Source: Chloroflexota bacterium (lineage in GTDB: Bacteria; Chloroflexota; UBA11872; VXNJ01). Taken from it: a stretch of 64,000 bases of DNA. Positions 14,076 through 43,337 of this stretch are shown here, one piece after another. The DNA is taken from assembly GCA_965218195.1 (NCBI GenBank), contig OZ244593.1, forward strand, positions 436,873 to 500,872. Direction: 5' to 3'. The translations under genes were made by a program, and so were the position numbers. Under the pieces are notes generated by a model. It was given only the letters and a program-made list of their open reading frames with translations. It did not search any database and had not been told where the DNA came from. The stretch's first letter is position 1. The number at the start of each line of letters is the position of its first letter.

Positions 14076-15755
14076 TCAGGACGAAAGGCAGGTGGAGTTT
14101 GGCGCCCCGCCAAGACGGCGGATCATGCCGTCTCGTTTGTTGAGCAGGAATACTTGGCCGTCGGGGCCGACGCCAAACCGCAAGTCCGCACGCAAGAGCT
14201 CCGGCAGCCCCAGCCGGTGTCTGGTTTCCTGCACCAACTGGAGCAGCGTCTTCGTCTGACCTTCGTGATTGAACAACACCCGGCGAATTTTGTCCTGCCC
14301 GCCATCGTGTGGCTCGTCGACCTGGACGTAGAACACCTCACCGCTGACGATGTCGCCGAACAGCAGCTTGTCCTTGAGCTCTGGAATCGCATCTTCCCGG
14401 TAGACCATGATGCCGGTGATGGCGACCGCCGCTTTAAATACGGGATCCTCATGGTCGAACTCGACAATGGGATACGTTACGCTGGGGTCGCCGCGTGGAT
14501 CGTCGAGATCGACCGGGTACCCGGTCGGGATCCGCGTCGGGTGAAACCGGAAGCTTCCCTCCCACCTGTTCCAACCGAGGTTGGCGCCCGGCGAGACAAT
14601 GCTGATCTCCTCCATGACTTCTTGACCAATGTCGGTGACGAACAGATCGCCGGTTTGGGAGTCCCAGCCGAAGCGTTGTGGGTTGCGCAATCCGTAGGCG
14701 TAGATTTCGCCAAGCCGGCCGGGCTTGCCGACAAACGGATTGTCCTCCGGGACGCCGTACCGGCCGTTGGCGCTGTTGGAGCCGAGCGGGTCGATGCGCA
14801 GGACCTTGCCATAGATATAGCTGAGGTTTAGCGCTTGGCCGTACGGAGCGCCGGGTAATCCACCGTCGCCTGTGCTGACATAGAGTTTGCCGAAATCGGG
14901 GTCTCCCGGCGCGGCGTTCGGGTTGAAGGCGATCTGCCCGCCGTTGTGATATCTGTGCGGTTGCTGGATGCGGATGAGTTCGCGCGGCGGGCCGCCGTCG
15001 TAGGCCACGGCCGCGGGGTCCAGAGCCGTCCACTCCAGTAGGACCGTGTCAAAATGATCGAGAGTTTGATTCCAGGGCGTGAAGTCCGCCTTGGGGGCTT
15101 TGTTGCTCGTCTCCACAAGTGTGTAGAACTTGCCGAACCCGGGCGTTCCGGACTGGTTGAACTGCGGATGAAAGGCAAAGCTCCCGAACCCCCAGTCGCG
15201 CCCCTTTTTATAGAAAACGGAATCGAGGTTCCACTCGGGGGCGCTCATATCGACGTACAATTTCACTGTCTGGCCGTCATAGCTGACACTGTGGAGCGGG
15301 CCGCGCAAGTCGTTCACGAACAGACGGCACGTGCCGGGCTCGTCGACGATCAGCATCATGAAAGCCGGCCCTCCGGCCGACTTGTCGCTGGATTCCGGAT
15401 CGCCCGAATCAGGCAGGCGTGCGAAGTCGGTGATCGCGACCTCGACGATGCCGTCCGTTTGTTGTATGGGATCGGGCAACGGATCCATGGAGAGGTTCGG
15501 AGGCAGCGTGGGCGTGGGAGTAGCCGCCGGTGTGGAGGTCGCCATGGGCGTCGGTGTCGATTCCGGTACCGGAACGTCGTCGCACGACCACAGTAAAGCA
15601 ACGGCTAAGCACGTCAAGCAAAGCGTGGTGCCAATAGTGGCTGGCCTGTCGTAACGGCGCGACCAGGCGAACTTCAAAATACCAACGTTTAAACAGGTTA
15701 TAGAGCAGTACGAGCCGTCAGAAGTGTACCCCGCCTGACCTGCCCCGGGACCCAT
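14076..15755 (-). CDS. PQQ-dependent sugar dehydrogenase (soluble glucose/sorbosone dehydrogenase family), secreted, with Pro/Thr linker
   Basis: 559 aa; N-terminal TM/signal then 'TPTPMATSTPAATPTPTLPP'; beta-propeller motifs 'GLRNPQRFGWD', 'GANLGWNRWEG'. Confidence 0.7.
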   Translation of the reverse strand: MGPGAGQAGYTSDGSYCSITCLNVGILKFAWSRRYDRPATIGTTLCLTCLAVALLWSCDDVPVPESTPTPMATSTPAATPTPTLPPNLSMDPLPDPIQQTDGIVEVAITDFARLPDSGDPESSDKSAGGPAFMMLIVDEPGTCRLFVNDLRGPLHSVSYDGQTVKLYVDMSAPEWNLDSVFYKKGRDWGFGSFAFHPQFNQSGTPGFGKFYTLVETSNKAPKADFTPWNQTLDHFDTVLLEWTALDPAAVAYDGGPPRELIRIQQPHRYHNGGQIAFNPNAAPGDPDFGKLYVSTGDGGLPGAPYGQALNLSYIYGKVLRIDPLGSNSANGRYGVPEDNPFVGKPGRLGEIYAYGLRNPQRFGWDSQTGDLFVTDIGQEVMEEISIVSPGANLGWNRWEGSFRFHPTRIPTGYPVDLDDPRGDPSVTYPIVEFDHEDPVFKAAVAITGIMVYREDAIPELKDKLLFGDIVSGEVFYVQVDEPHDGGQDKIRRVLFNHEGQTKTLLQLVQETRHRLGLPELLRADLRFGVGPDGQVFLLNKRDGMIRRLGGAPNSTCLSS

Positions 15756-15905
15756 GTCCAGGAGGACGCGGGCGGCTAGGAGACCAAGGATATGACGGTC
15801 GCCTCGCGCGTAGTCCCCGGGGTTGCTGCTCCGACCGGCGGAGCTCGCTACGCCAGCGGGCGACGGATTGCGCGCGGGAGAAGTCGGCTTGAAACGTAGA
15901 CGGCC

Positions 15906-17507
15906 TCAGTTCCGTTCTCTTAGACGGTACAACGTGTTTCCTGACACTTCATCGAGAATCTCATACTCCGTGTCTACGAAATCGAAGAAACGCTTGAATG
16001 CGTCCGGTTCGTGCAGATATCTCTTGTCGGTAGGTCGCCAACCCTTACGCGCCACCGGGTCCAGCGGCGATAATCGCCAGTTCTTGGTGTCCACGATTAT
16101 CGCCGGCCTGCTTTCGATGACGTCGTTAGTGAACTCGTTTCTATTTTTCAGATTCGCGTAGCCAGGTTTGACCAACGGGTATTGATAGAAGAATCGCGTA
16201 GGTGCGTCTCTTTGAGAAAGGGAATATATCTGTGGCTCGGCTCCCCATACTAGTATCGAATCGTCCGAAACCGTCTCCTCTCGGATGCGATCGGCGATAA
16301 GCCGGTCTTCGACCGATACAGTGATTTCGTCGACGTGAGCGTATTTATCGACCAGGCCGGCCACATGCCGGTAGGGGATCATGTAATACAGCACCCAAAG
16401 CAACAGTGCGGAGGAGAGCAGGATAGGCGCCACCAATCGTTGGTCGGTCAAAAACCGCACGAGAAACGCTATCAACACAGAGGAGACGGGGAGGATTGCG
16501 AGGTAATAGTGACCCCACTGAAAACCGGATAGCGCGATCAATACGACCTCGATCGGACCGAGAATCACAGCCAGCGGCAACAGATGTTCGAAAGTCCGTG
16601 ATCTCGTCCTGCCCGAGAGCCAATAGTAGAGACCCGCAATCCATGCCGCCGCAAGCGGTAATGAAATAATTACCAGTCTCCTCCTGATGTTCCCCAGGGC
16701 CTCTATTCTGTCCCAGAGCGAGGCGTCGACGTAAGCGAAGTTGTACGCGACCACGCTGTCCCAGAACGCACTCCACGCGCCAAAGATCGCGAACACAATT
16801 GAAACTGCGAGGAGGACTGCAATCCCTCCCAGGGTGGACCAGGCAATCCACCTCAAGGCAATGTCTCTTCGAATAATCCAGTACAGGCCTATGGCCAACC
16901 ACACGCCTATGAGGTTGCCCCTGAGAAGAAAGGCGCCGGCCCCTAGGGCGCCGATCGCCAAGGAGAGTCGGACCTCTCGCCCGCTCCCGCCAGTCAATTT
17001 GAAAAAGACGAGCAGCGCTACGAACTGGAAGAGCAGAGCGTAATGCTCCGTGAAATTCCCGCTGCCACTGAATTTGTTGACATAGATCAAGAATGTTGCA
17101 ACCGAAAAGAACCCGGCAGCGGCACCGAAGGCCTCTCTTGCGGTTTTGAATGCGAACCACGTTGAACCAAAGAGAAAGACCGCACCCGCCAGCCAGATAC
17201 CTGGAATTCCGGCGATGAGAAGACCGACAGCATAGAGCAGATATATCAGCGGTCCTTTATGATCCCAGCGATCGAGATAAGGTATCTCGCCGTCTAGCAA
17301 TCCCTCGGCAACGTAGATGAAGACATTCTGATCTCTCCCAGGCGTTGCGATCGTCGAGTCGACCGCTACAACCAACAGGACGGCGACTAAAACCGACCAG
17401 GCCCAGCTGAGGGCGGATTCGGCTTTGCAGCCAAGTAATTTGTCGGAAAAAGCTCTCGCCAAAAGTGACCTGCCCTCAAACCCGCGGACCGCCCTGCATG
17501 CTAGCAT
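15906..17507 (-). CDS. polytopic membrane glycosyltransferase-like protein (GT-C / ArnT-PMT-like)
   Basis: 533 aa, more than 10 TM helices; first-loop motif 'YVAEGLLDGEIPYLDRWDHKGP' resembles GT-C family acidic loop; C-terminal soluble domain. Confidence 0.5.
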   Translation of the reverse strand: MLACRAVRGFEGRSLLARAFSDKLLGCKAESALSWAWSVLVAVLLVVAVDSTIATPGRDQNVFIYVAEGLLDGEIPYLDRWDHKGPLIYLLYAVGLLIAGIPGIWLAGAVFLFGSTWFAFKTAREAFGAAAGFFSVATFLIYVNKFSGSGNFTEHYALLFQFVALLVFFKLTGGSGREVRLSLAIGALGAGAFLLRGNLIGVWLAIGLYWIIRRDIALRWIAWSTLGGIAVLLAVSIVFAIFGAWSAFWDSVVAYNFAYVDASLWDRIEALGNIRRRLVIISLPLAAAWIAGLYYWLSGRTRSRTFEHLLPLAVILGPIEVVLIALSGFQWGHYYLAILPVSSVLIAFLVRFLTDQRLVAPILLSSALLLWVLYYMIPYRHVAGLVDKYAHVDEITVSVEDRLIADRIREETVSDDSILVWGAEPQIYSLSQRDAPTRFFYQYPLVKPGYANLKNRNEFTNDVIESRPAIIVDTKNWRLSPLDPVARKGWRPTDKRYLHEPDAFKRFFDFVDTEYEILDEVSGNTLYRLRERN

Positions 17508-17692
17508 CGGCGATCTCTAGGGGTAGGTTCTGTAGAGGGTATGGTCGCTCGTACCGGCGACTTGTGGCAGGACGCAGTCACGATTCCCGTGCTGAGGATC
17601 AGAGCCTCCCAGACCGGTGACTTCTCCTATCAAGTCCACGAAGTGGCGTATAGATGGAGCCGGAAGTGACGTGACTGCTTCGCAACGGACTC

Positions 17693-19324
17693 ATGGGTAG
17701 TCGAGTGCGACGGCTAGCGGAACCCATTGGCCGTTTGCTGCTGCTGGGGGCGGTGGTGTTCTGGTGGGGCGCGGTCGTCGCTCCGCAGCTAGTAAGTCTG
17801 GCGTTTCCCTCGCTGCTTCCGTGGAGCGCCCTTCCGCGACATCTCAATCCGGATATCGAGGGGTCGCTGGCAAACGCGGTATCTGCCGCATCTTTCGCGG
17901 TAGTCGCACTTTTGGCTCTCGGAAATACCTCTCGCAGCCTCAGGATTCAAAACGCCCAGAAAAACTGGATTGCCGTGGGTGGTTGGGCGGCGCTGGCGGT
18001 GACAGCAGTGTATCTGACCGTAGATGAGACTGTCGATCCAAGAACCATGTCAGTCTTCGAAGGCCTGGGCCAAACCCCGTTCAGTGAGACCTACAAGAAG
18101 GATCTGTGGATCGTTGTGTTCAGCCCGCTGATTGTTGCTTTCGTTGTCGCGATGGGATTCTTCGTCTTAAGGGGATCGTTATCTCGTGCGGTGCGGGTCG
18201 TATTGATCCTCGGCTTCACTACTTGGTTGCTCGCTATCGTGCATGACGTGAGTTACATGCCGCTATTCGAAGGCATCGTTTCGAAGAGGGTAGGGAAATT
18301 GCTTGAAGAGACGCTTGAGTTCAGCGGCACCTTGCTAGTAGGACTGGGTGCGGCAATCTCCTTGTGGGGCCCGGAACCGGCATCTGACATGTTCCAGCGA
18401 CGGGGCCGGTTCACCTCGGCGGTTTGGTTACTCAACAAGTTCGCGATGGGCGCCGTCGCCATCGTCGCCTGCATTGTCGCGGTCGGCGTCCTAGTCCCGT
18501 ATCTCCACAAAACGCCGCTGGCCGACGCTCGCGCCGACACCAACATAGGTGCCTTTCAGATAATCCTGTACGACAAACACTCCCTCGTCCAGGAACTGGG
18601 CGTGCTTCCCGCACCTCCCTCCCGCTTGGATCTGCGCATTGCAAGCCGTGTCCCTCCGGATCGCCCGGGAAACCTCATATGGCGTGTGATCGAAGCGGGA
18701 GAAGGGGGTACCGGCAAAATATTCCGCGAGGGACGCAGGGAGATCCTCGCCAAGGATCACCTGACCTGGGAGACTATTGGATTTCCTCCGCCCGTCGAGG
18801 CCGAAGGCCATCCTTTGGCATTGCAACTCATAGCCGATGTCGGCCCAAGCGCCCATCTCCGGATTGGCGCGACAAAGACGAACCGGTACGAGGAAGGACG
18901 GCTCTGGGTTGACGGAGCACTGAGTTGGCCGGACCAAAACATCGAGTTCGTGGCCTACAGTGAGCCTGACCCAACCCGCAACAACCCCCAAGCAATGTGG
19001 CATATCTTTTTATCCGACTGGCGCTGGCCTGCTCTGGCCGCCGATCTGGCTATCGTTATGGCGCTGTTAATTTTTGTCCCGGCTCTGCTCATAATTGCCG
19101 CCGTTCCGCGGCGCGCGGCCGTGTTGGCCTTCGGGTTCACCTGGTCCATCCTACGCAGAAGACAGACCGCCCTCGGCGGCCTCTGCGAGGTGAATCCGAC
19201 CACGTTCGCCACTACGCCACAAAAAGAGAACGAAGTTCTCCGCCGAAAGCGCCAAGTTGGCAATCACGTTACTCGCCGGCGGGCGGACGAGAATGGAATC
19301 AAGTCTCAGTTGGCCTCGGTGTAG
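17693..19324 (+). CDS. hypothetical polytopic membrane protein
   Basis: 543 aa, multiple TM segments at both ends with central soluble domain; divergent from 15906..17507. Confidence 0.55.
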   Translation: MGSRVRRLAEPIGRLLLLGAVVFWWGAVVAPQLVSLAFPSLLPWSALPRHLNPDIEGSLANAVSAASFAVVALLALGNTSRSLRIQNAQKNWIAVGGWAALAVTAVYLTVDETVDPRTMSVFEGLGQTPFSETYKKDLWIVVFSPLIVAFVVAMGFFVLRGSLSRAVRVVLILGFTTWLLAIVHDVSYMPLFEGIVSKRVGKLLEETLEFSGTLLVGLGAAISLWGPEPASDMFQRRGRFTSAVWLLNKFAMGAVAIVACIVAVGVLVPYLHKTPLADARADTNIGAFQIILYDKHSLVQELGVLPAPPSRLDLRIASRVPPDRPGNLIWRVIEAGEGGTGKIFREGRREILAKDHLTWETIGFPPPVEAEGHPLALQLIADVGPSAHLRIGATKTNRYEEGRLWVDGALSWPDQNIEFVAYSEPDPTRNNPQAMWHIFLSDWRWPALAADLAIVMALLIFVPALLIIAAVPRRAAVLAFGFTWSILRRRQTALGGLCEVNPTTFATTPQKENEVLRRKRQVGNHVTRRRADENGIKSQLASV

Positions 19325-31823: not shown

Positions 31824-32534
31824 CTAGCCCTCGCCGGCCATTTGGCTAACTTCGTCCCGAATCACTTCGAGAATGGCCGAGAAGGTAACGGCTATGGGGC
31901 CTCGCGCGTCGATCATGACGAAATCGTGGACCGCCGCGAGCCGGCGGAACTCGGCGATCATCTCGTTCTGATAGTCGATGTAGGTCGTGTGCTGGTCCTG
32001 CCCCCGCAGGAAGTCTTGCCCCGACTCCCAGTAGTCGAATCCGCCCGCACTGGCAAGGATTCGGGACAGCAGGCGCTCGACGTTGACGTCCAGGTAGATT
32101 ACGCGGTCCGGAACGGCGGCGAAGCCGTACACGTCCTGCATCCACTCTGGCGATACGCCCCTGACTGACGCCCGGGCTATCAAGGAGTACATGTAGCGGT
32201 CGGCCAGTACGATCAGCCCCGCCCGGAGCGAGGGAATTATCGTCCGTTCGAGGCGGTCGGCGAAGTCGGTTGCATAGAACAGATTCAGCGTGAGCGGATC
32301 GAGCTTATGTCCGGTCTTGGCCCGCTCGATTCCCTTACCGGCAAGCTCCGATCTGGTAAGACCGGTGTCCACCACTCCATAGCCGTGATCTTCCAGCCAT
32401 TCCTTGGTAAGCCGAATGTGCGTGGACCGGCCCGAGCCGTCGGGCCCCTCGAACACGATCAGGCGCCCCGGGAAACTGCCGTCGTCGGCTCTCAGCGGAG
32501 GCTCGCCGTAGAACTTCAGCTTCCGCTCGCTCAC
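31824..32534 (-). CDS. thymidylate kinase-like (dTMP kinase family) protein
   Basis: P-loop 'VFEGPDGSGRSTH', 'LADRYMYS' dTMP-kinase motif. Confidence 0.6.
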   Translation of the reverse strand: MSERKLKFYGEPPLRADDGSFPGRLIVFEGPDGSGRSTHIRLTKEWLEDHGYGVVDTGLTRSELAGKGIERAKTGHKLDPLTLNLFYATDFADRLERTIIPSLRAGLIVLADRYMYSLIARASVRGVSPEWMQDVYGFAAVPDRVIYLDVNVERLLSRILASAGGFDYWESGQDFLRGQDQHTTYIDYQNEMIAEFRRLAAVHDFVMIDARGPIAVTFSAILEVIRDEVSQMAGEG

Positions 32535-33274
32535 CGCCCGAAGAGCTCCGGCATGTACCGGCCGCTGAGATCGAATTCGGACAACGCCCCGGCCAGGTCT
32601 CCATCATCGGCTTTGGTCACGCCGGTCAGGTGGGGTTCCACGGCCTGCCGCATCTTCCGCTGCTGTTGGACCAGCGACTCGGTGGCGTCGATTCGATACA
32701 GACCGAAATCGTCGACCATGCCGCTGTATTCGTTCTGGATCATTTCCTGGAATAGTCGAAACGATTCGAACGGATTGTCACTCAGCCCCAAGTCCATTCC
32801 GGCTTCGTAGTATTTGACAGCCTCGCGTCCGACCTCGATTCGCCGGATAGCTTCGTCGGGAGGTACGTCGAAGTAGAAGGCAATGGTTGGCTCTGGCGCG
32901 AATGAATACAGCCGCCGCAGCCATTGCGGATCCATCCCTCTCGCGCCATCGCGCGCGTACGCCGTGTAGACGTATCGATCGGCCAGGACGATAGCCCCTG
33001 CCCGGAGCGCGGGAAGTATCTGATCGTTTACCCGGTTGGCGAAATCACACGCGTGAATCAGGCTGAAGCTTAGCGGCGTCAGCAGTCGGCGGCGCTTTCC
33101 CCGGCGCGTGGTCCTGCGGACGATTGGCGACGAGTTCCATTCGGTAAAGACGACCAGGTATCCCCGGCTCACAAGCCATTTGTGCAGCAGGTCGATCTGC
33201 GTGCTCTTGCCTGAGCCGTCGATCCCCTCCACGACGAACAGCTTGCCCGGCAGATCCCCCTGTGGTGAATTCAA
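32531..33274 (-). CDS. thymidylate kinase-like (dTMP kinase family) protein, tandem paralog
   Basis: P-loop 'VVEGIDGSGKSTQ', 'LADRYVYT'; 4-nt overlap with downstream paralog. Confidence 0.6.
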   Translation of the reverse strand: MNSPQGDLPGKLFVVEGIDGSGKSTQIDLLHKWLVSRGYLVVFTEWNSSPIVRRTTRRGKRRRLLTPLSFSLIHACDFANRVNDQILPALRAGAIVLADRYVYTAYARDGARGMDPQWLRRLYSFAPEPTIAFYFDVPPDEAIRRIEVGREAVKYYEAGMDLGLSDNPFESFRLFQEMIQNEYSGMVDDFGLYRIDATESLVQQQRKMRQAVEPHLTGVTKADDGDLAGALSEFDLSGRYMPELFGR

Positions 33275-33279
33275 ACGGT

Positions 33280-33990
33280 TTATGCCGCCGCCCCCCGTAC
33301 TTTCAGCAAGATTCCCAGTGCGCTTGCGAATCGTCTCTCCAGCCCGCGCTCCGACCAGGCTTCGAGTCCCGCTCCGCAGATGGTCAGATCGCCGGCTTCG
33401 CGATAGACGCGCAGGCGGCCTTCCGCGTCGACGGGTAAACGGCGGGCGACTTCGTCAGCCGCTTCCAGTATCGCCGCGGCGCCGGGCAGATAGCTGGAGC
33501 CGTGCTTGCCGGCGTCGTCGATGTAGCGCTCGAGATCGGGCCCGTTCCTACCGGCCATCTTCAGCGCCCCCGCCATAAACGCGATCTCCGAATGCAGCAA
33601 TCCCCTCAGATCGCTCGATTCGACGATGCTGGCGGCGTGGGAAAAGCGGTTGTGGAAGTCCATGCTGCTCCCCGCCTTGAGGACCTGCGCGGCGTAGCGC
33701 ACAAGCTTTTTCAGTTCTTCGGGCGTGTCCGGCGACGCCGCTTCGACCAGCGCCAGGGTCACGTCGCGGCAGCGCTGCGCCGAATCATGCCGCCACGATC
33801 GAAACCTCGACGAGAGCGCCACGATCGAACGTTCCCGCACGGCGGCCACGCTGGGCAACGAGTCGCCTTCCAAATCGAGCGCCAACCCCTCCCGCAGACC
33901 GTCGCCCGAAATGATAATCGACTCAGCGCCAAGCGCCCGGACGATGGCATCGAGAACGACCCCGCCGCGCGCCGCGCGATCTGTCCCACG
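33280..33990 (-). pseudogene. Ppx/GppA phosphatase, C-terminal portion only (N-terminal ATPase domain missing)
   Basis: 'ISGDGLREGLALDL' (end of domain II) followed by HD-like helical domain; ORF 5' end runs into a REP palindrome and the RAYT gene. Confidence 0.45.
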
Positions 33991-34013
33991 TAGGGGCGGT
34001 TCGCGAACCGCCC
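33991..34013. repeat. REP-like palindrome GGGGCGGTTCGCGAACCGCCCC, copy 1
   Basis: perfect palindrome; five copies in the window. Confidence 0.8.
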
Positions 34014-34096: not shown

Positions 34097-34768
34097 TCAA
34101 TAGGGACGTGTGCGGTCGGCTTGGATTTCAGGATTGTATTTATCCAACTCCCACTGGGTTGGATTGTTGACGATGTACTCGCGAACGCCGGCCAATTCCT
34201 CGTCGTCTCGAATAACGCGTTCGTAATAATTCCGCTGCCAGATCGGTCTGCCAGGAGTTCTTCGGGCGAGGTTTAAACGCTTCGTTGAAACGGTTTTGAA
34301 TGCGCCGATCATGCGTTCCAAAGGTTGACGGCGAACCGGCGTTTGGGCGGTTCGCGAACCGCCTCTACACGGATCGGTCATGGCGATAATGCCGTGCAGA
34401 TGGTTCGGCATCACGACGTATTCATCCAGCGTCACGTAGGGATACTGCACGGCCAGCCATTCCCATGAATCTCTAACCAAACGCCCGGTGTCGTTCAGTT
34501 GGACTGCGCCGTCCACGACGCTCCCGAACAAACATGACCTGTCCCGGACGACGACCGTAACGAAATACGCCCCGGCTTGAGAGTAGTCGTACCGCTCCAG
34601 CCGAATCGAACGGCGGTCGTGGATCCTGGGATCGTAGGTCGTAGCCCGTTCCTCCGACGCCAATGCCCGCGTTTCCTTCAAGCGGTTTTGAACATAGTGA
34701 TCATACGTCCCGGATATTTGGATTGGACCGAAACGAGCGATAGGGTCGGATATGCGCCCCTCGACCAA
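34097..34768 (-). CDS. REP-associated tyrosine transposase (RAYT; IS200/IS605-like Y1 HUH transposase)
   Basis: 'YDYSQAGAYFVTVVV', HUH motif 'MPNHLHGII', catalytic Tyr context 'WQRNYYERVIRD', 'YIVNNP'; flanked by REP copies; ORF 5' extension probably not translated. Confidence 0.75.
   Translation of the reverse strand: MVEGRISDPIARFGPIQISGTYDHYVQNRLKETRALASEERATTYDPRIHDRRSIRLERYDYSQAGAYFVTVVVRDRSCLFGSVVDGAVQLNDTGRLVRDSWEWLAVQYPYVTLDEYVVMPNHLHGIIAMTDPCRGGSRTAQTPVRRQPLERMIGAFKTVSTKRLNLARRTPGRPIWQRNYYERVIRDDEELAGVREYIVNNPTQWELDKYNPEIQADRTRPY
34345..34366. repeat. REP-like palindrome, degenerate copy inside the RAYT ORF
   Basis: tGGGCGGTTCGCGAACCGCCtc; translated in frame as 'RGGSRTAQ'. Confidence 0.7.
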
Positions 34769-34863: not shown

Positions 34864-34887
34864 GTAGGGGCGGTTCGCGAACCGCCC
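34864..34887. repeat. REP-like palindrome, copy 3
   Basis: gtaGGGGCGGTTCGCGAACCGCCC. Confidence 0.8.
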
Positions 34888-35865: not shown

Positions 35866-35981
35866 CGCGCAGTAACCGTTCGCGGAAGATTTAGTCGAAA
35901 CCAACTTTGCGGCTATCCTTCAGCAATACCGGGATCAAGGCGTGCGAAGCTTGTAGTGCAAGCAGTCGGAGGGGATACCCC

Positions 35982-36752
35982 ATGCGTCAGCATCGCCGAT
36001 ATAAGAACCCACCGATAGAAGAGGCTATTTGCGAGTTCCGCTTCAAACCAGGCCCAGATTGGGATCTCACAATTCCCGGTAAGCTCCAGAGCAAGCTTGG
36101 CGACGAATACTCCGGTAAACCGCAGCAGAGAACAGTTGTCGAAGTTGGCCTGGAAATGCAGGCAGGACGGCCTTCCGAGTTACGGCATGGTGAAAGACTG
36201 GGGATGGTCCAGCTTGTCACCGAGAACGGCAAGCGTATGGTTGGCGTTGGATCGGACATCCTAAGTGTCAGCATGTTGCGGCCCTACCATGATGTCTCTC
36301 GTCCTGGCGGTAGCGGGTGGGATGAGTTCCAGCCCCGTATAGCGGATGCGCTTGATGCGTATAAGAGTGTTGCAGAACCCGTTGGCGTGTTTCGGATCGG
36401 CATCCGGTATATAAACAAGATTGCCATTCTACAGAACGAGGTACGAGTCGAGGACTATCTCAAGTGTGCATTGCCGGATGTGGATGGCCTGCCCGACCGT
36501 CTGAACAACTTTATTAGTCGTGTTGAATACACGTACGAGGACGGAGTGCGGCTTGTCTTATCTCAGGGCTTGATCAACGCGCCGTCGGACCATGTTGGCT
36601 TTCTTCTTGATCTTGACGTTATATGGGAGAACACCAAGCCGATTACGCTAAACGAGGCGTTGTCGAGGGTGGAAGACTTGCGCAATCGTGAACGAGACGC
36701 GTTCGAGACGGTGATTACGGATGAAGCGAGGAAGCTCTTCGATGCAGATTGA
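35982..36752 (+). CDS. TIGR04255-like protein (conserved hypothetical), first gene of low-GC three-gene operon
   Basis: 'MRQHRRYKNPPIEEAICEFRF' matches the characteristic N-terminus of the TIGR04255 family as I recall it; GGAGGGG SD; local GC about 52%. Confidence 0.5.
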   Translation: MRQHRRYKNPPIEEAICEFRFKPGPDWDLTIPGKLQSKLGDEYSGKPQQRTVVEVGLEMQAGRPSELRHGERLGMVQLVTENGKRMVGVGSDILSVSMLRPYHDVSRPGGSGWDEFQPRIADALDAYKSVAEPVGVFRIGIRYINKIAILQNEVRVEDYLKCALPDVDGLPDRLNNFISRVEYTYEDGVRLVLSQGLINAPSDHVGFLLDLDVIWENTKPITLNEALSRVEDLRNRERDAFETVITDEARKLFDAD

Positions 36753-37470
36753 AGCCAACACGCTTGTACATTCCAAGACTTCGACCTTTGGTCCACTTGC
36801 TCTCGCAGAGATCAACCAATCGGGTATGTCCTATGATCCCCCACCCCCTTTCGCAAACGGCAAAGAATCGCTTGCGGCTTCTTCAGATGCCGCATTGCTA
36901 CAAGAACGCATGGTGGCGCTTGTATGCGATTTGTACCTTGAAAGGATGACTACAGGTACGGTCGACGCGCTGCTCAGCGACCTGATCTTTCCGATGTACG
37001 TGGATGTGTCCTTCCTCGCCACTCAAGCGGACGCGCAAGAGTCGTCTACTGTGGCGAGAGAAACGGCGCGACTCTTGAACGAATTGCAAGCGGCCTTTGA
37101 AGCGGATCCCCTTGAGGATGGAATGGACCATCCGGCCGAGCGGATCATTGAAAGAGCATTGCGCCATACGGAAAACCAGCACGTTCTTGACTGGTTAGGG
37201 ACCGTCTCGTTGGATTCCGCGCAACCCAGCTTCGCGGCGTCCGTTCTGCGTTGCTTAGGACGTATTGAACATGTGGGGACAGCGTCATGGTGTGCGCAAC
37301 TCGTGCGGAACGGTCTGGAATTAGACGACGTTGAGATCAGAGACGCTGCGGTGCAGGCGGCAGAGTCGTGGCGCGACCCGGATATTGTGGACGTTTTGGC
37401 CGCGCACGATGAGCCTGAGCCTTGGCTTAGAGACTACATTCGAGACGTAATTACCGACCTCCGAGACTAG
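36742..37470 (+). CDS. hypothetical protein (helical), second operon gene
   Basis: ATG overlaps upstream stop by 11 nt (translational coupling); no recognisable motifs. Confidence 0.5.
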   Translation: MQIEANTLVHSKTSTFGPLALAEINQSGMSYDPPPPFANGKESLAASSDAALLQERMVALVCDLYLERMTTGTVDALLSDLIFPMYVDVSFLATQADAQESSTVARETARLLNELQAAFEADPLEDGMDHPAERIIERALRHTENQHVLDWLGTVSLDSAQPSFAASVLRCLGRIEHVGTASWCAQLVRNGLELDDVEIRDAAVQAAESWRDPDIVDVLAAHDEPEPWLRDYIRDVITDLRD

Positions 37471-37473
37471 GTA

Positions 37474-37989
37474 ATGTTCCTGGCTCGAAAGATCACGCGC
37501 GCCAAGTGGAATCCAAAGAACGGGTTGTCAGCAGGCGAAATCCCCGCCGACGCTGTGACCGTTGATCTGAGGACACGGGAGAACTCGCTATCTTTCTGGC
37601 GGTGTGGACTTGGGGAAAAGGAACAAGTCGAAGAGGCGGCGCTTGCAATAGCCGCGGCTGGCGATCGCGTTGATAGGCTGGACCTCGTTTGGCTTACAGA
37701 TGATGAACTTGGCGCTGACGGTCAAACGTGGAGCGATACGGACGGACAGACACCTGTTACAGACTTGATCAGGCGACACGTTGATGTATACAGGCTCGAC
37801 TACGTTCGTCTAGGAAACGTCGCTAGTCGAGTTGTCACCGCGTTGACAGAACAACGGTACTGTCGGCTCCCAAAACGCCGCGTTACAAATCTCCTAGCAG
37901 CGGCAGTTAGAGAAGGACGAGTCGCACTCACCGACTTGCGGGAGGGGGTCCGCATAGAAGTGCGTAAGTCGCTCTATGCCGGTCCATGA
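37474..37989 (+). CDS. hypothetical protein, third operon gene
   Basis: starts 4 nt after previous stop; 'MFLARKITRAKWNP..LSFWRCG' N-terminus; no match I can name. Confidence 0.45.
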   Translation: MFLARKITRAKWNPKNGLSAGEIPADAVTVDLRTRENSLSFWRCGLGEKEQVEEAALAIAAAGDRVDRLDLVWLTDDELGADGQTWSDTDGQTPVTDLIRRHVDVYRLDYVRLGNVASRVVTALTEQRYCRLPKRRVTNLLAAAVREGRVALTDLREGVRIEVRKSLYAGP

Positions 37990-37996
37990 AATTTCC

Positions 37997-40900
37997 CTAC
38001 ACCGCCACCACCGTCTCGGTATCCCCGGCGGCGAGGGCGTTGAGGTAGGCGAGGATTAGGTCGCGGGTGCGGTAGCGGCCGAAGTCGGTTTCGTCTTCGC
38101 GGCGGACTATGGGGAAGGTGTTTAGCACGTAGCCGGCGTCGTCCCGGCTCAGGCCGTAGAGGTGGAAGTAGAGGGCGTCGAGCCTGGCGCGCAGGTGGCG
38201 GCGCTCCTCGTCGTCCCAGACGAACGGCGGACCGTCGTAGCCGAGGTCGCGGGCGAACGGCGCCATGTCGTGGGCGGTGTAGGTGAGCCGGAGCACGTGA
38301 TCGCGGACCAGCTCCCGCGCCGTCACCGCGCCGAAACGGCGGTCGTAGGCGTCGGGCGCGATGACCGGTAGCTGCTCGACGATGTACCAGTTAAGGGTTG
38401 TCCCCTGAATTTTCTGACGTACGACAAAATCTAAAGAAATGCTATTTAGGTTTGCTGCGATGCAACAGTGCATAGCGGCTTCAGTGGAGGCGGGTAGCAG
38501 GATGTTATTTGCGTTCACTTCGTAGGCCGTATATGGGCCGATTGCGGCGATCATAGTGCGAACGTTGGTCGGAGCCGTGATGCGTTTGTAGGTCAGGACA
38601 TATTCACTAGTTCCATCATTGGTCACATTAGTCTCATTCACGAAGTAACGGGTGCTGGGAAGCCACTGCGGGTCTTGGTGCTGTCCCAGCGTTGCCGATA
38701 CTTTTTGGCCGGGCCGATGCAGATTGTCAGGGTTCACTACCACGCTGGCGGCGCGGTGATCGAACGCCTGCACCATCTTGCCCTCGTACAGAGGCAAATA
38801 CATTTCGTTGCCTCGCTTCCAGTGGTTGCCCTGGACCGGGTAGAAGCCTTCGTCCTCAAGCTGCGGTGCGGTGCGGAAGAGGTGCGAGTCGTTGGTCATG
38901 TCGAACATGCGCACGTACTTGACCGGCCAGGCGCGGCGCTCTGCATCGCCCGACCGGTCCACCAGCACCGGATGTTGCTCGTAGATGCGACGGGTGATGT
39001 CAGCGTCGCGGCGGGTGCGGAAGATCGGGGCGGTCCCGGTGTTGGGGTTTACGCGGGCGAAGTCGTCCGGCGCCAGCGCAAAGCAGCGGTCGGGGTCATT
39101 GATGGTCTCGGTGTCGTGGAGGAAGAAGGCGCATTCGGTCTCGTCGAAGCGCCGCTGCTCGCCGCCGAAGATGAAAGCGCAGAACTTTTCGGAGGCGTGT
39201 ACGTCCTTGAAGAAAATCTTCTTGTTCTCGAAATCGAACAGGCCGGACACGCGGCCCTTTGTGGAGACGGACTTGAAGAAGCGGGCGGCGGTCTTGTCGG
39301 CGTAGATGCCGGACTTCGTGAGCAGGCCCACGAAGCCGTCGGGCTTTATGAGGCTCATGGCGCGCTCGACGAACAGCGAGTAGAGGTTGATATCGCCTTT
39401 ACCGAGAAGGGGGTATTGTCCAGATGCGCGAACGAACCGGCCGAGCTTGTCCGCCCGCGCCTTGGCGGCGTCGAACTCGGCCGCGAGCGGCGCTCCCTGT
39501 TCCCGCAGTCGCTGAATGCCCGCCCTTCTCGCGGCGGCGGTCGGCGCTCGCGCCAGCTCCGGGTCGCGGGTCGCCAACCACTCAACCTCTTGCAGCTTGA
39601 TCTTTTCCCACGGCGGATTGCCGATCACGGCGTCGAATCCGCCCTCCGGACGGTAGTCCTGCCAGCCGCTCCACACGCCCGGAAAGGCGGCCTCCCAGTG
39701 CAGAAAGCTCTCGCGGCGGGCGACTGACATGGCGTCTTTCCACAGGTCGTTGAAGGCGGATAAGGAGTGGGTTTGGGGGACACCCTCACCCCTACCCTCT
39801 CCCTTCGAGGGAGAGGGATTAGAGGCGTCGGGTCCGCGTGCGAGGAGCTTGTATGCGACCTCCGGCTGCCGGCCGAGGGCCTCACTCGCCAGTCCCTCGC
39901 GGGCCATCCGGTCCAGTCTCTTCATCCCCGCGGTATGCCAGCGCAGGCCGCAGAGGAAGTCGAGCACACCGCGCAGGTCGGCGGTGGCTTCCTCGACGTT
40001 GCGGAACAGCGCGGCCGACTCGCGCACCTCGGCCACGTCCGCGTCGGACATCCCTTCGATGAGCTGCATCCCGTCGGCGGCGGTTTCGACGCCCGCAACG
40101 GCGCTCGCGGTGAGCAGCCCTCCGAGCTTGCGCAGGTCTTCGCGCGCGTCTGTAACCCGCAGCCCGATCAGCGAGTCGCCGCGGCGCAGGTGGTGGTCGA
40201 GAAACGAGAGCGGCGCACCGACGGTGAAGCTGTGCAGCCACAGTGAGACTTTGGCCAGCTCGACGGTGAGCGGGTTCTTGTCCACGCCGTAGATGCAGCG
40301 CTTGAGCACCATGCGCCGGATGATGGCCTGGTCGGTAAGCTGGGCCTCGTCCAGAATCCACTTCGATTCTTCGGCCCTGCGCAGGATCTCGTCGCGGATC
40401 GAGGCTATGCGGTCCACCAGCGGCGATGCGTATTCGCCGTCGAGCCACTCGGGGTATACCGGCGCGTACTCGACCAGGCGGGCGATGTCGTCGGACAGAT
40501 AGTCAACCGCCGTTACCAGAAAGTGGCCGCTGCCCATGGCCGGGTCGAGTATCTTGAGATCGAGCACCGCCTCGGCCGGGTCCAGCTTGCGCAGCTCAGC
40601 CTTGCGTTCGGACTTGGGGCGGCGGTCGCTCTTCAGCTCGTTCGACTTGCGCTTGAACGTGTCGAGGCGCTCGTCGATCAGCGGCTTCAGCGTGCGGTCT
40701 ACGATCAGGTCGACCAGCTCCTGCGGCGTGTAGAAGCTGCCGCTGTCCTTGCGCGCATAGGGATTGGGGCGGATTACGATCTTGCCGCCGTCGCCGAGGA
40801 CCGGCTCGCGTTCGAGCAGGCGCTCGTAGATCGAGCCGAGCTGCTGGACGGACATGTCGCGGTAGTTGACGAACTGGCGCTCGCCGTCGGTCTCCGTGTG

Positions 40901-42040
40901 GCTCAGGTCGTGGATTATCGGGGCGACCGCCGCGTCGGGCAGGCGCACGGCTTCCAGCAAGGGAGCGGCTTCGGCGGCGAAAAGTCCGCCGTTGTAGGGC
41001 GGCAGACCGATGGAGGCGTCGCCCCGGTCGATGATCTTGCAGAGCGTCATAACGTGGTCGTAATAGCTGGCGGCGACGTTCGAAAACGTGTCGCCCCTGT
41101 CCGTGCGGTCGGCGACATCCAATCGCACCCGCTTCTGCAGCCCGTAGTCGTCGTAGCGGGTGTCGTTTACGGGCAGCAGGCCGCGGTCCTCGGCGTAGAG
41201 CACGAACAGCAACCGGTAGAGGAGCACCAACGCCGCCTGGCGGACCTGGGCGAGGTCGCGGCCGCCGGCGGCCGCCAGCGCCTGCGCGAGGCTGGGAAAG
41301 GCGCGCTCGAACACGACGCGAGAGAGGTCCTGCGCGACCTGCCGCTCGTAGCGCCGCCCCTCCTCCAGCGCGCGCTCCAGGAAAGTCTCCGTGGCGCCGG
41401 CCCGCTTGACGAAGGAGTCGCGGCGGAACAACAGGTTGAACGTGCGCAGCTCGTCTTGGTCGTCGCGCTGGAGGGCATCGGCGAGATCGACCTCGAAGTA
41501 GCCGGTTGCGCGGGGACGGGCCCGCCGGTCGTAGAGACGCCATGTGCCGCCGTTGGTGAGGATTCCCCAGCGGGCGCCGCCGTCGGCAACGTATTCCGCC
41601 GTCGAAAGGTAGCGCAGGATCTGGCCGTGCGGCGTCCTTGCCCTGACCACGTCGTCCTCGTCGCGGGCGTCGAGCGGCAGGCCGAACCGCTTGCTCTCCT
41701 CTACTGCCAGCGCGTCGGCGTAGCGTCGATCCGGGTCGCGTCTGGCCGCGGCGCGGGCCTTGGAGTCCGCGTCGGCGAACAGCAGCAGATCGGGGATGTC
41801 CTCGTTGCGGGCCGCGCCCTGCTGCGGCAGGTAGTCGGTCCATCCAAGCAGCTCCAGCACCGGGCGGATTAGCTCCTGCTCGGTTACGGCCTCGTTGGGG
41901 TCGTGGGACTGCTCGAGGGCGTCGTAGCTCCGCCGGACGCCGTTGCGAAACGCCTCCGCGTTTGCGGCGGAAGAGTGCCACCTGGTCGTGGATCTGATGC
42001 CCTCGGTCAGGTAGTACTGGGTGAATAGCTGGCCGGACAT
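37997..42040 (-). CDS. Type IIG/IIL restriction-modification enzyme (fused PD-ExK endonuclease, gamma-class N6-adenine methyltransferase and TRD; Eco57I/MmeI-like)
   Basis: N-terminal 'IPDLLLF...AVEESKRFG' PD-ExK; MTase motif X/I 'GSFYTPQELVDLIV', 'LDPAMGSGHFLV'; motif IV 'VIGNPPWEKIK'; about 450-aa C-terminal region with GC dip (TRD). Confidence 0.7.
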   Translation of the reverse strand: MSGQLFTQYYLTEGIRSTTRWHSSAANAEAFRNGVRRSYDALEQSHDPNEAVTEQELIRPVLELLGWTDYLPQQGAARNEDIPDLLLFADADSKARAAARRDPDRRYADALAVEESKRFGLPLDARDEDDVVRARTPHGQILRYLSTAEYVADGGARWGILTNGGTWRLYDRRARPRATGYFEVDLADALQRDDQDELRTFNLLFRRDSFVKRAGATETFLERALEEGRRYERQVAQDLSRVVFERAFPSLAQALAAAGGRDLAQVRQAALVLLYRLLFVLYAEDRGLLPVNDTRYDDYGLQKRVRLDVADRTDRGDTFSNVAASYYDHVMTLCKIIDRGDASIGLPPYNGGLFAAEAAPLLEAVRLPDAAVAPIIHDLSHTETDGERQFVNYRDMSVQQLGSIYERLLEREPVLGDGGKIVIRPNPYARKDSGSFYTPQELVDLIVDRTLKPLIDERLDTFKRKSNELKSDRRPKSERKAELRKLDPAEAVLDLKILDPAMGSGHFLVTAVDYLSDDIARLVEYAPVYPEWLDGEYASPLVDRIASIRDEILRRAEESKWILDEAQLTDQAIIRRMVLKRCIYGVDKNPLTVELAKVSLWLHSFTVGAPLSFLDHHLRRGDSLIGLRVTDAREDLRKLGGLLTASAVAGVETAADGMQLIEGMSDADVAEVRESAALFRNVEEATADLRGVLDFLCGLRWHTAGMKRLDRMAREGLASEALGRQPEVAYKLLARGPDASNPSPSKGEGRGEGVPQTHSLSAFNDLWKDAMSVARRESFLHWEAAFPGVWSGWQDYRPEGGFDAVIGNPPWEKIKLQEVEWLATRDPELARAPTAAARRAGIQRLREQGAPLAAEFDAAKARADKLGRFVRASGQYPLLGKGDINLYSLFVERAMSLIKPDGFVGLLTKSGIYADKTAARFFKSVSTKGRVSGLFDFENKKIFFKDVHASEKFCAFIFGGEQRRFDETECAFFLHDTETINDPDRCFALAPDDFARVNPNTGTAPIFRTRRDADITRRIYEQHPVLVDRSGDAERRAWPVKYVRMFDMTNDSHLFRTAPQLEDEGFYPVQGNHWKRGNEMYLPLYEGKMVQAFDHRAASVVVNPDNLHRPGQKVSATLGQHQDPQWLPSTRYFVNETNVTNDGTSEYVLTYKRITAPTNVRTMIAAIGPYTAYEVNANNILLPASTEAAMHCCIAANLNSISLDFVVRQKIQGTTLNWYIVEQLPVIAPDAYDRRFGAVTARELVRDHVLRLTYTAHDMAPFARDLGYDGPPFVWDDEERRHLRARLDALYFHLYGLSRDDAGYVLNTFPIVRREDETDFGRYRTRDLILAYLNALAAGDTETVVAV

Positions 42041-42714: not shown

Positions 42715-43337
42715 TAAATAGTGCCTCCAGACGATTTTTCTAAAATGTACATATGCGTTTGGTCTTTTGATACCGCCGGGAAGCAACGTCCTTCCCTGCG
42801 AGCAATTTCGGTGGTTACCCTCCCTCATTGTCGTCAAACGGTATTTCCCAGTGTCGGGCAATGTAGCAGTGTTGTCAAGAAGCATCTTGACAGAGATGGA
42901 CGACCTTGGGATCAGGCCGCCAACTCCAGGTTCAGTTCTTCGAGGAGTTGGGACAGGTCCTCGCCGAAGAGGGTGTAGGCCTTGGGCGAGGCCGTGCGCG
43001 TTGATCGTAGAGACGCCACACATCCCCATTGGTCGGGATTCCCCAGCGAATCCGTCGATCGGTCCTTATGCGAGATCGAGGTTATAAGAGGTTATGCAGC
43101 CCCTACGCGATCGTGCGTCTGCCCGAATAGTCGGGGGGCCGCAAACCGCGCTTACTCCTCAGTCATGAGGTGAGGGTGTGTCTACGGGATGATTCCCTTC
43201 TAAATGGACGGCTATTGCCGCTCACGGTACGATGGGTGGCCCTACCGATACCGGTAGGACTACTACCCCTATCGCTTCGGCGGCAGGGTCGAGGCCGCCT
43301 TCCGAGGCGGTCTCTGTCTTTATGAGGGGAGTATCGA

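Follow-up and report, generated by a model that had tools for sequence, protein, structure and literature searches.

What kind of system is formed by three small, tightly packed genes that stand out by their low guanine-plus-cytosine (GC) content in the genome of a Chloroflexota bacterium? The genes, referred to here as g1, g2 and g3, lie at positions 35982-37989 on the + strand of a 64,000-nt stretch of contig OZ244593.1 (assembly GCA_965218195.1, forward-strand positions 436,873 to 500,872), which was analyzed as a whole and is called the window below. The first-pass annotation of this DNA, made from the letters alone, had seen in them a translationally coupled operon and the best local candidate for an undescribed defense or abortive-infection cassette. 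Comparative tests of synteny, genomic context and resemblance to known systems support that candidacy, the function itself being putative. The cassette is real, horizontally acquired and found in many unrelated bacteria. The reading favored here, with a probability of roughly 0.4, is that the trio constitutes a horizontally mobile, tripartite, toxin-antitoxin (TA)-like conflict module, most likely an abortive-infection or defense cassette.

The exchangeable 'head' gene of the cassette, g1 (35982-36752, +), starts with ATG and encodes a 256-aa TIGR04255-family protein; a Shine-Dalgarno-like GGAGG (35968-35972, +) can be read in the sequence 9 nt 5′ of this start. The second gene, g2 (36742-37470, +; 242 aa), ends in TAG, and a spacer of 3 nt, counted from that stop, leads directly into g3 (37474-37989, +; 171 aa), the proposed effector and a member of a large unannotated family. 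This matches the close succession first described. An overlap of g2 with the end of g1 had been reported as well; it measures 11 nt, but the g2 ATG itself sits 8 nt before the g1 stop TGA (36750-36752), and the junction is not of the ATGA type. Public gene callers predict the same 256-, 242- and 171-aa genes in four strain variants of the locus, in agreement with a coupled three-gene operon on the + strand. An alternative g2 start (ATG 36721) was dropped in favor of 36742 because it is supported neither by homologue starts nor by public gene calls. No sigma-70-like promoter or intrinsic terminator above expectation was found around the cassette.

A scan with one genome per species identified 154 genomes that encode a g3 relative, the best 80 of which (L001-L080) were analyzed. 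Among related loci, the 11-nt g1/g2 overlap is kept in 32 of 45 and the 3-nt g2/g3 spacer in 51 of 80, the g2/g3 junction in the remaining loci of the 80 consisting of a spacer of ≤12 nt or an overlap. Between the window and its closest genomic relative (L003), the ratio of nonsynonymous to synonymous substitution rates (dN/dS) is 0.13 for g1, 0.27 for g2 and 0.20 for g3, which indicates that all three are functional coding genes under purifying selection.

The trio is syntenic in unrelated genomes, as the first-pass annotation had suggested checking. Each of the three proteins has hundreds of relatives at 45-88% identity, and contigs of identical length turn up among the hits of all three. 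The 80 analyzed loci span at least 12 phyla or classes. In all 80, the segment encoding the last ~135 aa of g2 directly precedes g3, and the two genes are adjacent, co-directional and coupled as in Type II TA systems. The full trio, with g1 directly upstream of g2, is present in 45-47 of the 80; elsewhere the first gene is unrelated or absent. Six loci carry a class B head, an unrelated gene of 224-280 aa that abuts a longer g2 (298-346 aa). In the 14 head-less loci, g2 is ≤185 aa and consists essentially of the C-terminal domain alone, the N-terminal tail being absent, and where g1 is the head its length is 215-286 aa. The length of g2 thus co-varies with head type, and its N-terminal tail with the head gene. 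The C-terminal domain of g2 adjoins g3 in every locus and the head varies, so that this pair makes up the obligate unit and the head is exchangeable. The class B head was considered as a divergent TIGR04255 protein and rejected, as it gives no hhalign signal against g1 and no match in NCBIfam.

More distant relatives extend this modularity. In Acinetobacter baumannii prophage Ab105-1phi (KT588074.1, trio at 38458-40396), a g3 homologue (28% identity) is the third of three tightly packed genes that follow the tail-fibre and lysis region close to the end of the prophage, and a g3 homologue is likewise third of three on A. lwoffii plasmid pALWVS1.1. The Acinetobacter middle genes share the g2 C-terminal motif D-x-EIR...ESW...WL-x-Y. 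Acinetobacter prophages thus carry adjoining homologues of g3 and g2, the genes that match the families phrog_10743 and phrog_21208 in the PHROGs collection, but a different, unrelated first gene; this gene was rejected both as TIGR04255 and as class B, with no hhalign signal against either g1 or the class B head. Conversely, three-gene cassettes that begin with a distant TIGR04255 gene (21-33% identity) occur on plasmids of Crinalium and Rhizobium and in a P2-like prophage of Ralstonia, and on a Thermus plasmid the TIGR04255 gene has only one small co-directional downstream gene annotated. The last gene of the Crinalium cassette is homologous to g3 (hhalign probability 77%, E 2e-5) and keeps the motifs R-K-I, S-F-W and H-x-E, and the middle gene has weak HEAT matches. 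The Ralstonia third gene is of a different family from g3, and the Rhizobium third gene was rejected as g3-like on comparison. Because first and third genes both swap in these deep relatives, the system is combinatorial in head and tail, a property typical of conflict systems.

Two of the distant loci have features of their own. On Rhizobium sp. CB3060 plasmid pCB3060_2 (L088, 2159-7141), the TIGR04255-headed cassette stands directly after a multiubiquitin/ThiF adenylyltransferase/DUF6527 set, near insertion sequence (IS) elements. In the P2-like Ralstonia phage YO139_2 (L090, 350-2061), an unannotated prophage end encodes, besides the TIGR04255 homologue, two further proteins: one of 165 aa whose N-terminus is rich in S, T and P, and one of 146 aa that belongs to a different family.

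Base composition and protein identities both point to lateral transfer. The GC content of the trio is 54.7%, compared with 61.5% for the rest of the window; the anomaly reported initially is therefore present, but the figures then given (52% against ~65%) were overstated. Among 2008-nt stretches of the window, the trio ranks lowest in GC (z = -2.7; 0.24% of such stretches are equally low), and GC at third codon positions is 0.54-0.59 in the trio and 0.72-0.85 in neighbor genes. This pattern recurs across the family: in 73 of 79 loci the GC content of the cassette core falls below that of the flanks, the mean difference being -5.2 points (Wilcoxon p = 1.4e-13). Between phyla, g3 proteins share 50-88% identity, and values of 72-89% connect differently labeled higher taxa (e.g., 88% between Dadabacteria and Thermodesulfobacteriota), and the nearest g3 neighbor shares the taxon label for only 41 of 81 sequences.

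The genes around the cassette were surveyed by a Pfam census of the 127 genes that directly flank it in 64 dereplicated loci. They fall into 102 different Pfam families, the commonest being N6_N4 DNA methylase (9), ResIII (5), DEAD helicase (5), RE_endonuc (4) and AAA_14/DUF4143 (3). Beyond that, genes flanking one locus are unrelated to those flanking another, and no housekeeping context is conserved; neither scattering of the genes through such contexts nor a metabolic annotation, both named earlier as grounds for doubt, was found. Genes for restriction-modification (RM) are the commonest immediate neighbors, and Cas9, TIR, VapBC and Cas6 genes also occur, which bears out the predicted co-occurrence with defense genes. 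Type III mod and res enclose the cassette in 6 of the 80 loci (L017, L020, L028, L031, L033 and L042). A 4-nt overlap joins the end of g3 to the start of res in two of these, L020 and L042, so that the two genes appear from the sequence to be translationally coupled there. Five further loci place the cassette directly after the large methylase of a second RM type, with a UvrD-like helicase or Cas9 downstream, and in one locus a TIR protein is encoded upstream. Some copies reside in prophage or plasmid accessory regions, the plasmid copies adjoining VapBC, RelB/YafQ, Cas6, a methylase and the multiubiquitin-ThiF-DUF6527 set. The cassette is not always in a defense island. In a metagenome-assembled genome (MAG) of Dehalococcoidia (L041, 8475-12573), the gene ~1.4 kb downstream of the cassette encodes a Cas9 with RuvC_III, HNH_4 and an alpha-helical lobe.

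What g3 might do is suggested chiefly by its predicted fold. No Pfam, NCBIfam or PADLOC family matched g3 at significance, and none matched g2, in keeping with the first description of both as lacking a recognized family; in PHROGs, only families of unknown function respond, clearly for g3 (phrog_10743, 4e-25) and weakly for g2 (phrog_21208, 0.005). A match of g3 to PADLOC DpdD (E 0.003) was set aside as chance, being reproduced by only 1 of 54 diverse family members, and a Pfam scan of the same 54 members returned only a C-terminal SHOCT-like DUF1707, in 4 of them. The family is large, with 2387 clusters at 50% identity (E≤1e-3), and among the best 150 of these clusters the members are mostly stand-alone proteins of ~165-175 aa. 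The AlphaFold2 model of g3 has a mean predicted local distance difference test score (pLDDT) of 89.5 and a predicted template modeling score (pTM) of 0.84. In fold comparison its top match is Tpt1, and most of the next 27 matches are of ADP-ribosyltransferase-like fold. Conservation reaches at least 90% at R5 and S40 and is complete at H102, and D or E predominates at position 104; in the model these residues fall on predicted strands 1, 2 and 5 in the same order as the R-S-E residues of ADP-ribosyltransferases, the equivalences being assigned without superposition. On the strength of this model, g3 probably has an ADP-ribosyltransferase-like fold, and its enzymatic activity and use of NAD+ are putative.

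The sequence of g2 divides into two parts of unequal conservation. The N-terminal tail (~aa 1-105; 36742-37056, +) is poorly conserved but retains the short motifs M-x-I-E, DQSG, ESLA-S and FP-x-VD (alignment A3), and the C-terminal domain (~aa 106-242; 37057-37470, +) is strongly conserved. Residues 163-237 match Pfam HEAT_2 with 20.3 bits (E 7e-4), under the gathering cutoff of 27.7, and PF13646 is precomputed for 3 of 120 g2 homologues. No DNA-binding domain was detected in g2, and matches to helical mitoribosomal proteins among PDB sequences were dismissed as chance. The C-terminal domain is putatively helical and HEAT-like, and is proposed as the partner or antitoxin of g3. A 168-aa g2 homologue (P0240) joins a TIGR04255-like N-terminal motif, PPIGEAVCEFRFKP, straight to the g2 C-terminal domain, apparently the product of a deletion by which the beginning of g1 was joined to the last part of g2.

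For g1, the initial description as TIGR04255-like is confirmed by a full-length match of 136.1 bits against a cutoff of 30, in which residues 6-253 cover profile positions 1-251 of 252; no Pfam family matched. TIGR04255 is an uncharacterized NCBIfam family described as 'sporadically distributed', with no assigned function, and full-text literature searches for TIGR04255, CHP04255 and IPR026349 found no paper. The present analysis adds operon partners, a predicted fold and invariant residues to this family. The AlphaFold2 model (pLDDT 86, pTM 0.83) shows a nine-stranded antiparallel sheet backed by helices, and the enzymes that it matches best use ATP: guanidino kinases, McsB, the class II aminoacyl-tRNA synthetase core, glutamine synthetase and glutamate-cysteine ligase. 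The residues invariant throughout the deep family are P11, E14, Y102, W113, F116, R138, R142, Y143, D210, D212, F241, I245 and T246, and in the model the conserved polar cluster suggests a ligand-binding or catalytic site on the sheet. g1 lacks both the sequence membership and the catalytic residues of the ATP:guanido phosphotransferases and is not classed as a phosphagen or protein-arginine kinase. PDB sequence searches found no solved structure related to g1, g2 or g3.

Taken together, the strict adjacency, coupling, small size and mobility of the two genes and the toxin-like fold predicted for g3 make the g2 C-terminal domain and g3 a TA- or effector-immunity-like pair. In the mechanism proposed for the conflict module, g3 would be a small cytoplasmic effector that arrests the cell using NAD+, either by modifying a target or by depleting the cofactor. 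The HEAT-like C-terminal domain of g2, made just before g3 from the same mRNA, would bind and silence it, and the N-terminal tail would dock the head protein. g1, with E14, R138, R142-Y143, D210-x-D212 and T246 on its antiparallel sheet, could act as a sensor, stabilizer or modifier of g2, and infection, or the loss or inhibition of a neighboring RM system, would release g3. Toxicity, neutralization, NAD+ use, g1-g2 contact, the trigger and anti-phage activity are thus all putative elements of this scheme. By analogy, the Type III loci suggest that some copies back up restriction, with most copies autonomous. A more far-reaching version can be put forward only tentatively: that the cassettes represent a widespread new tripartite abortive-infection family with a divergent ADP-ribosyltransferase-like g3, a HEAT-like g2 and an exchangeable controlling module (mostly TIGR04255), some copies being wired into Type III operons as a second line and one subclade having spread laterally over at least 12 phyla of apparently sponge-associated bacteria.

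Several known systems resemble this design in part. Toxin-antitoxin-chaperone (TAC) systems such as CmdTAC/PD-T4-9 and HigBA-SecB also consist of three small co-transcribed genes. In TAC systems an extension of the middle protein ties it to the third component, which pairs with different TA families. The cassette has an analogue of this arrangement: the tail of g2 changes with the type of head, and the gene pairs that follow TIGR04255 are not always the same. The order of the cassette is reversed, however, with the head first and the toxin last, and g1 is not SecB-like, the property looked for in a TAC third component. PADLOC, which presumably includes models for PD-T4-9/CmdTAC, has none that matches. 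The difference in g1, the gene order and the lack of a PADLOC match together indicate that the cassette is not a TAC member. A published account gives the CmdTAC toxin as an ADP-ribosyltransferase (PMC11618068); at the sequence level g3 resembles neither CmdT nor any ADP-ribosyltransferase family.

A second point of comparison is provided by the ADP-ribosyltransferase-fold TA pairs DarTG, ParST, RES-Xre and MbcTA and the effector-immunity pairs Tse2-Tsi2 and Tne2-Tni2, in which a small toxin (~150-220 aa) stands beside a dedicated protein inhibitor, as the putative toxin g3 would beside its proposed inhibitor g2. The residue order of g3 (R, S, acidic) mirrors the R-S-E pattern of ADP-ribosyltransferase-fold toxins. 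Unlike in these pairs, the partner in the cassette is HEAT-like and not of the macrodomain, Xre-type helix-turn-helix (HTH) or MbcA type, the third motif of g3 is H-x-D/E, and a third gene is usually present. PADLOC-DB v2.0.0 gave no significant match of g1, g2 or g3 to any system model, and literature searches on ADP-ribosyltransferases with HEAT proteins, on three-gene systems and on genes between mod and res returned nothing that describes the cassette. Within Pfam, NCBIfam, PADLOC v2 and the searchable literature, the cassette is therefore undescribed beyond the uncharacterized family label of g1 and the unknown-function PHROGs of g2 and g3.

A number of results weigh against a TA-like defense module. 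No protein of the trio matches a TA or defense model in Pfam, NCBIfam or PADLOC. Structure prediction and a Foldseek search had been recommended at the outset; models of g1 and g3 were obtained, but a search of the PDB with the g3 model produced no ADP-ribosyltransferase and nothing significant (best E 0.2), and so provides no independent support for that fold. The g3 family profile likewise found no ADP-ribosyltransferase among PDB sequences, only chance Smac/DIABLO matches, and none of the 54 family members matches the ADP-ribosyltransferase, RES or DarT models of Pfam. The third catalytic position would be occupied by H-x-D/E where the canonical residue is E. As regards g1, its fold resembles those of kinases and of glutamine synthetase and not a known antitoxin, chaperone or sensor, so that the role given to it here is a guess. 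No close g3 relative was found in an IMG/VR scan, and the immediate neighbors of the cassette are mostly ordinary housekeeping genes, which makes its context mixed.

The organization and coupling of the genes would suit a pure addiction (post-segregational killing) module that stabilizes an island, plasmid or RM operon and has no anti-phage role. The RelB/YafQ and VapBC pairs beside plasmid copies fit this explanation, as does the embedding of some copies in RM operons, addictive elements in their own right. Across the four strain variants of the locus (L083-L086), the trio and the DUF5131 gene are constant, whereas the Doc gene with its ribbon-helix-helix (RHH) partner and the NYN gene are present or absent and the RM gene varies, which also speaks for addiction. 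Exchangeable heads and a tripartite form, however, characterize sensing systems more than they do simple TA pairs, and the accessory location in prophages suits defense. Addiction is also only a partial rival, since many characterized TA systems do both, and the two roles are hard to separate in silico. As a complete account, addiction alone appears unlikely.

A non-toxic function in nucleotide or RNA modification or repair starts from the two structural models. If g3 were a Tpt1/KptA-like NAD+-dependent enzyme, as its top match would suggest, and g1 an ATP-using enzyme of kinase or ligase type, consistent with its best matches and its conserved E, R-x3-R-Y and D-x-D cluster, then g2 would be a scaffold and the trio could counter toxins or damage. 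Yet the catalytic R-H-R-R tetrad of Tpt1 is unrecognizable in g3, and there is no sequence-level link to any enzyme family. This explanation also leaves unaccounted for the two-gene form made up of the g2 C-terminal domain and g3, the exchange of heads and the strict pairing with a helical partner, and it must be regarded as rather improbable.

The RM genes near the cassette raise the question of whether it is an accessory of restriction. PrrC in the EcoprrI Type Ic locus, RloC and the rlo genes are abortive-infection genes that, though not part of RM, lie inside an RM operon, as the cassette does in the six Type III loci described above, two of them with res starting within g3. PrrC backs up restriction in a Type I locus. 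The trio might similarly be held inactive by an RM complex and freed when a phage inhibits restriction, or might regulate RM. A methylase or res-like gene is adjacent in ~12 of the 80 loci, and in the window the g3 stop lies 7 nt from that of a Type IIG gene. About 85% of the loci, however, have no adjoining RM gene, and the types that do occur differ (Type III, Type IIG and others), which argues against a specific protein partnership. Among the strain variants, moreover, the trio stays whole even where the Type IIG gene has been split or altered. The cassette differs from PrrC and RloC in having no anticodon-nuclease or ATP-binding cassette (ABC) ATPase domain and in the type of its host operons (Type III, not Type I); most copies are not embedded in RM operons, and the copy in the window is only adjacent to, and convergent with, the Type IIG gene. 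A dedicated RM accessory is accordingly improbable.

The distribution of the closest relatives introduces a last possibility. Nearly all of the 80 closest loci come from MAGs of lineages typical of high-microbial-abundance sponge microbiomes, including Latescibacterota, Dadabacteria, Caldilineaceae, Dehalococcoidia, Binatia, Rhodothermales, Spirochaetia, Nitrospirales, Palauibacterales, 'Synechococcus sp. SB0668_bin' and Arenicellales, and 'Ca. Palauibacter rhopaloidicola' is named for the sponge Rhopaloeides; the 80-locus subclade thus appears to be sponge-associated. Eukaryote-like repeat proteins are enriched in sponge symbionts, as are RM, CRISPR and TA genes in the symbionts of reef sponges, and both are laterally transferred between symbionts (PMC8163846). 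That the trio is a symbiosis factor, in which an ADP-ribosyltransferase-like effector directed against host cells is paired with a eukaryote-like helical-repeat protein, is nevertheless very improbable, because g1, g2 and g3 have no obvious signal peptide or secretion motif by eye (no predictor was used), prophages and plasmids of Acinetobacter and a plasmid of a cyanobacterium carry members of the family, embedding in RM operons fits intracellular conflict, and the sponge bias may stem from the pattern scan, which finds only close relatives.

If the trio is indeed a TA-like defense module, it would give the TIGR04255, g2 and g3 families (g3 with ~2400 clusters at 50% identity) their first functional context. 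It would also add a very divergent branch of ADP-ribosyltransferase-like toxins with a new kind of protein inhibitor, and a second, independently evolved 'toxin, tailed antitoxin, third component' design beside the TAC systems. The Type III loci would become a testable case of a defense module inserted between mod and res, and the sponge-type lineages would offer a concrete gene set exchanged laterally among distant members of a host-associated community. The homologue in an Acinetobacter baumannii prophage would serve as a culturable entry point.

Within the window itself, the cassette converges on a 1347-aa Type IIG gene (37997-42040, -), whose stop lies at the 7-nt distance mentioned above, in accordance with the convergence first noted. 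Across the strain variants this gene is intact at 1421 or 1434 aa, split into 1111+330, or split into 636+398+144. The genes first listed around the cassette were largely recovered by Pfam, which recognizes DUF5131 (Gp37/Gp68), the Eco57I-type IIG enzyme, Fic/Doc and NYN, but has no match for the RHH protein or for the REP-associated tyrosine transposase (RAYT). The putative RAYT open reading frame (ORF; 34097-34768, -) has no Pfam match at E≤1e-3, and its HxH motif is present. The repetitive extragenic palindromic (REP)-like palindrome GTAGGGGCGGTTCGCGAACCGCCC occurs in three copies (33990-34013, 34345-34368 and 34864-34887), two flanking the RAYT ORF and one inside it. No direct repeats or tRNA genes bound the island, and no Rfam family was found within 33-45 kb of the window.

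Other features of the window lie outside the cassette. Two thymidylate-kinase-like genes (236 and 247 aa; 31824-33274, -), arranged in tandem and overlapping each other, lie immediately upstream of the island and are conserved in all strain variants. A 67-nt direct repeat with 75% identity links positions 41506-41572, inside the 5′ part of the Type IIG gene, with positions 42982-43048, upstream of RHH/Doc. The second-lowest-GC patch of the window (~15550-17950, ~55.7%) covers an ORF for a 533-aa multi-pass membrane protein (15906-17507, -), which may be a glycosyltransferase.

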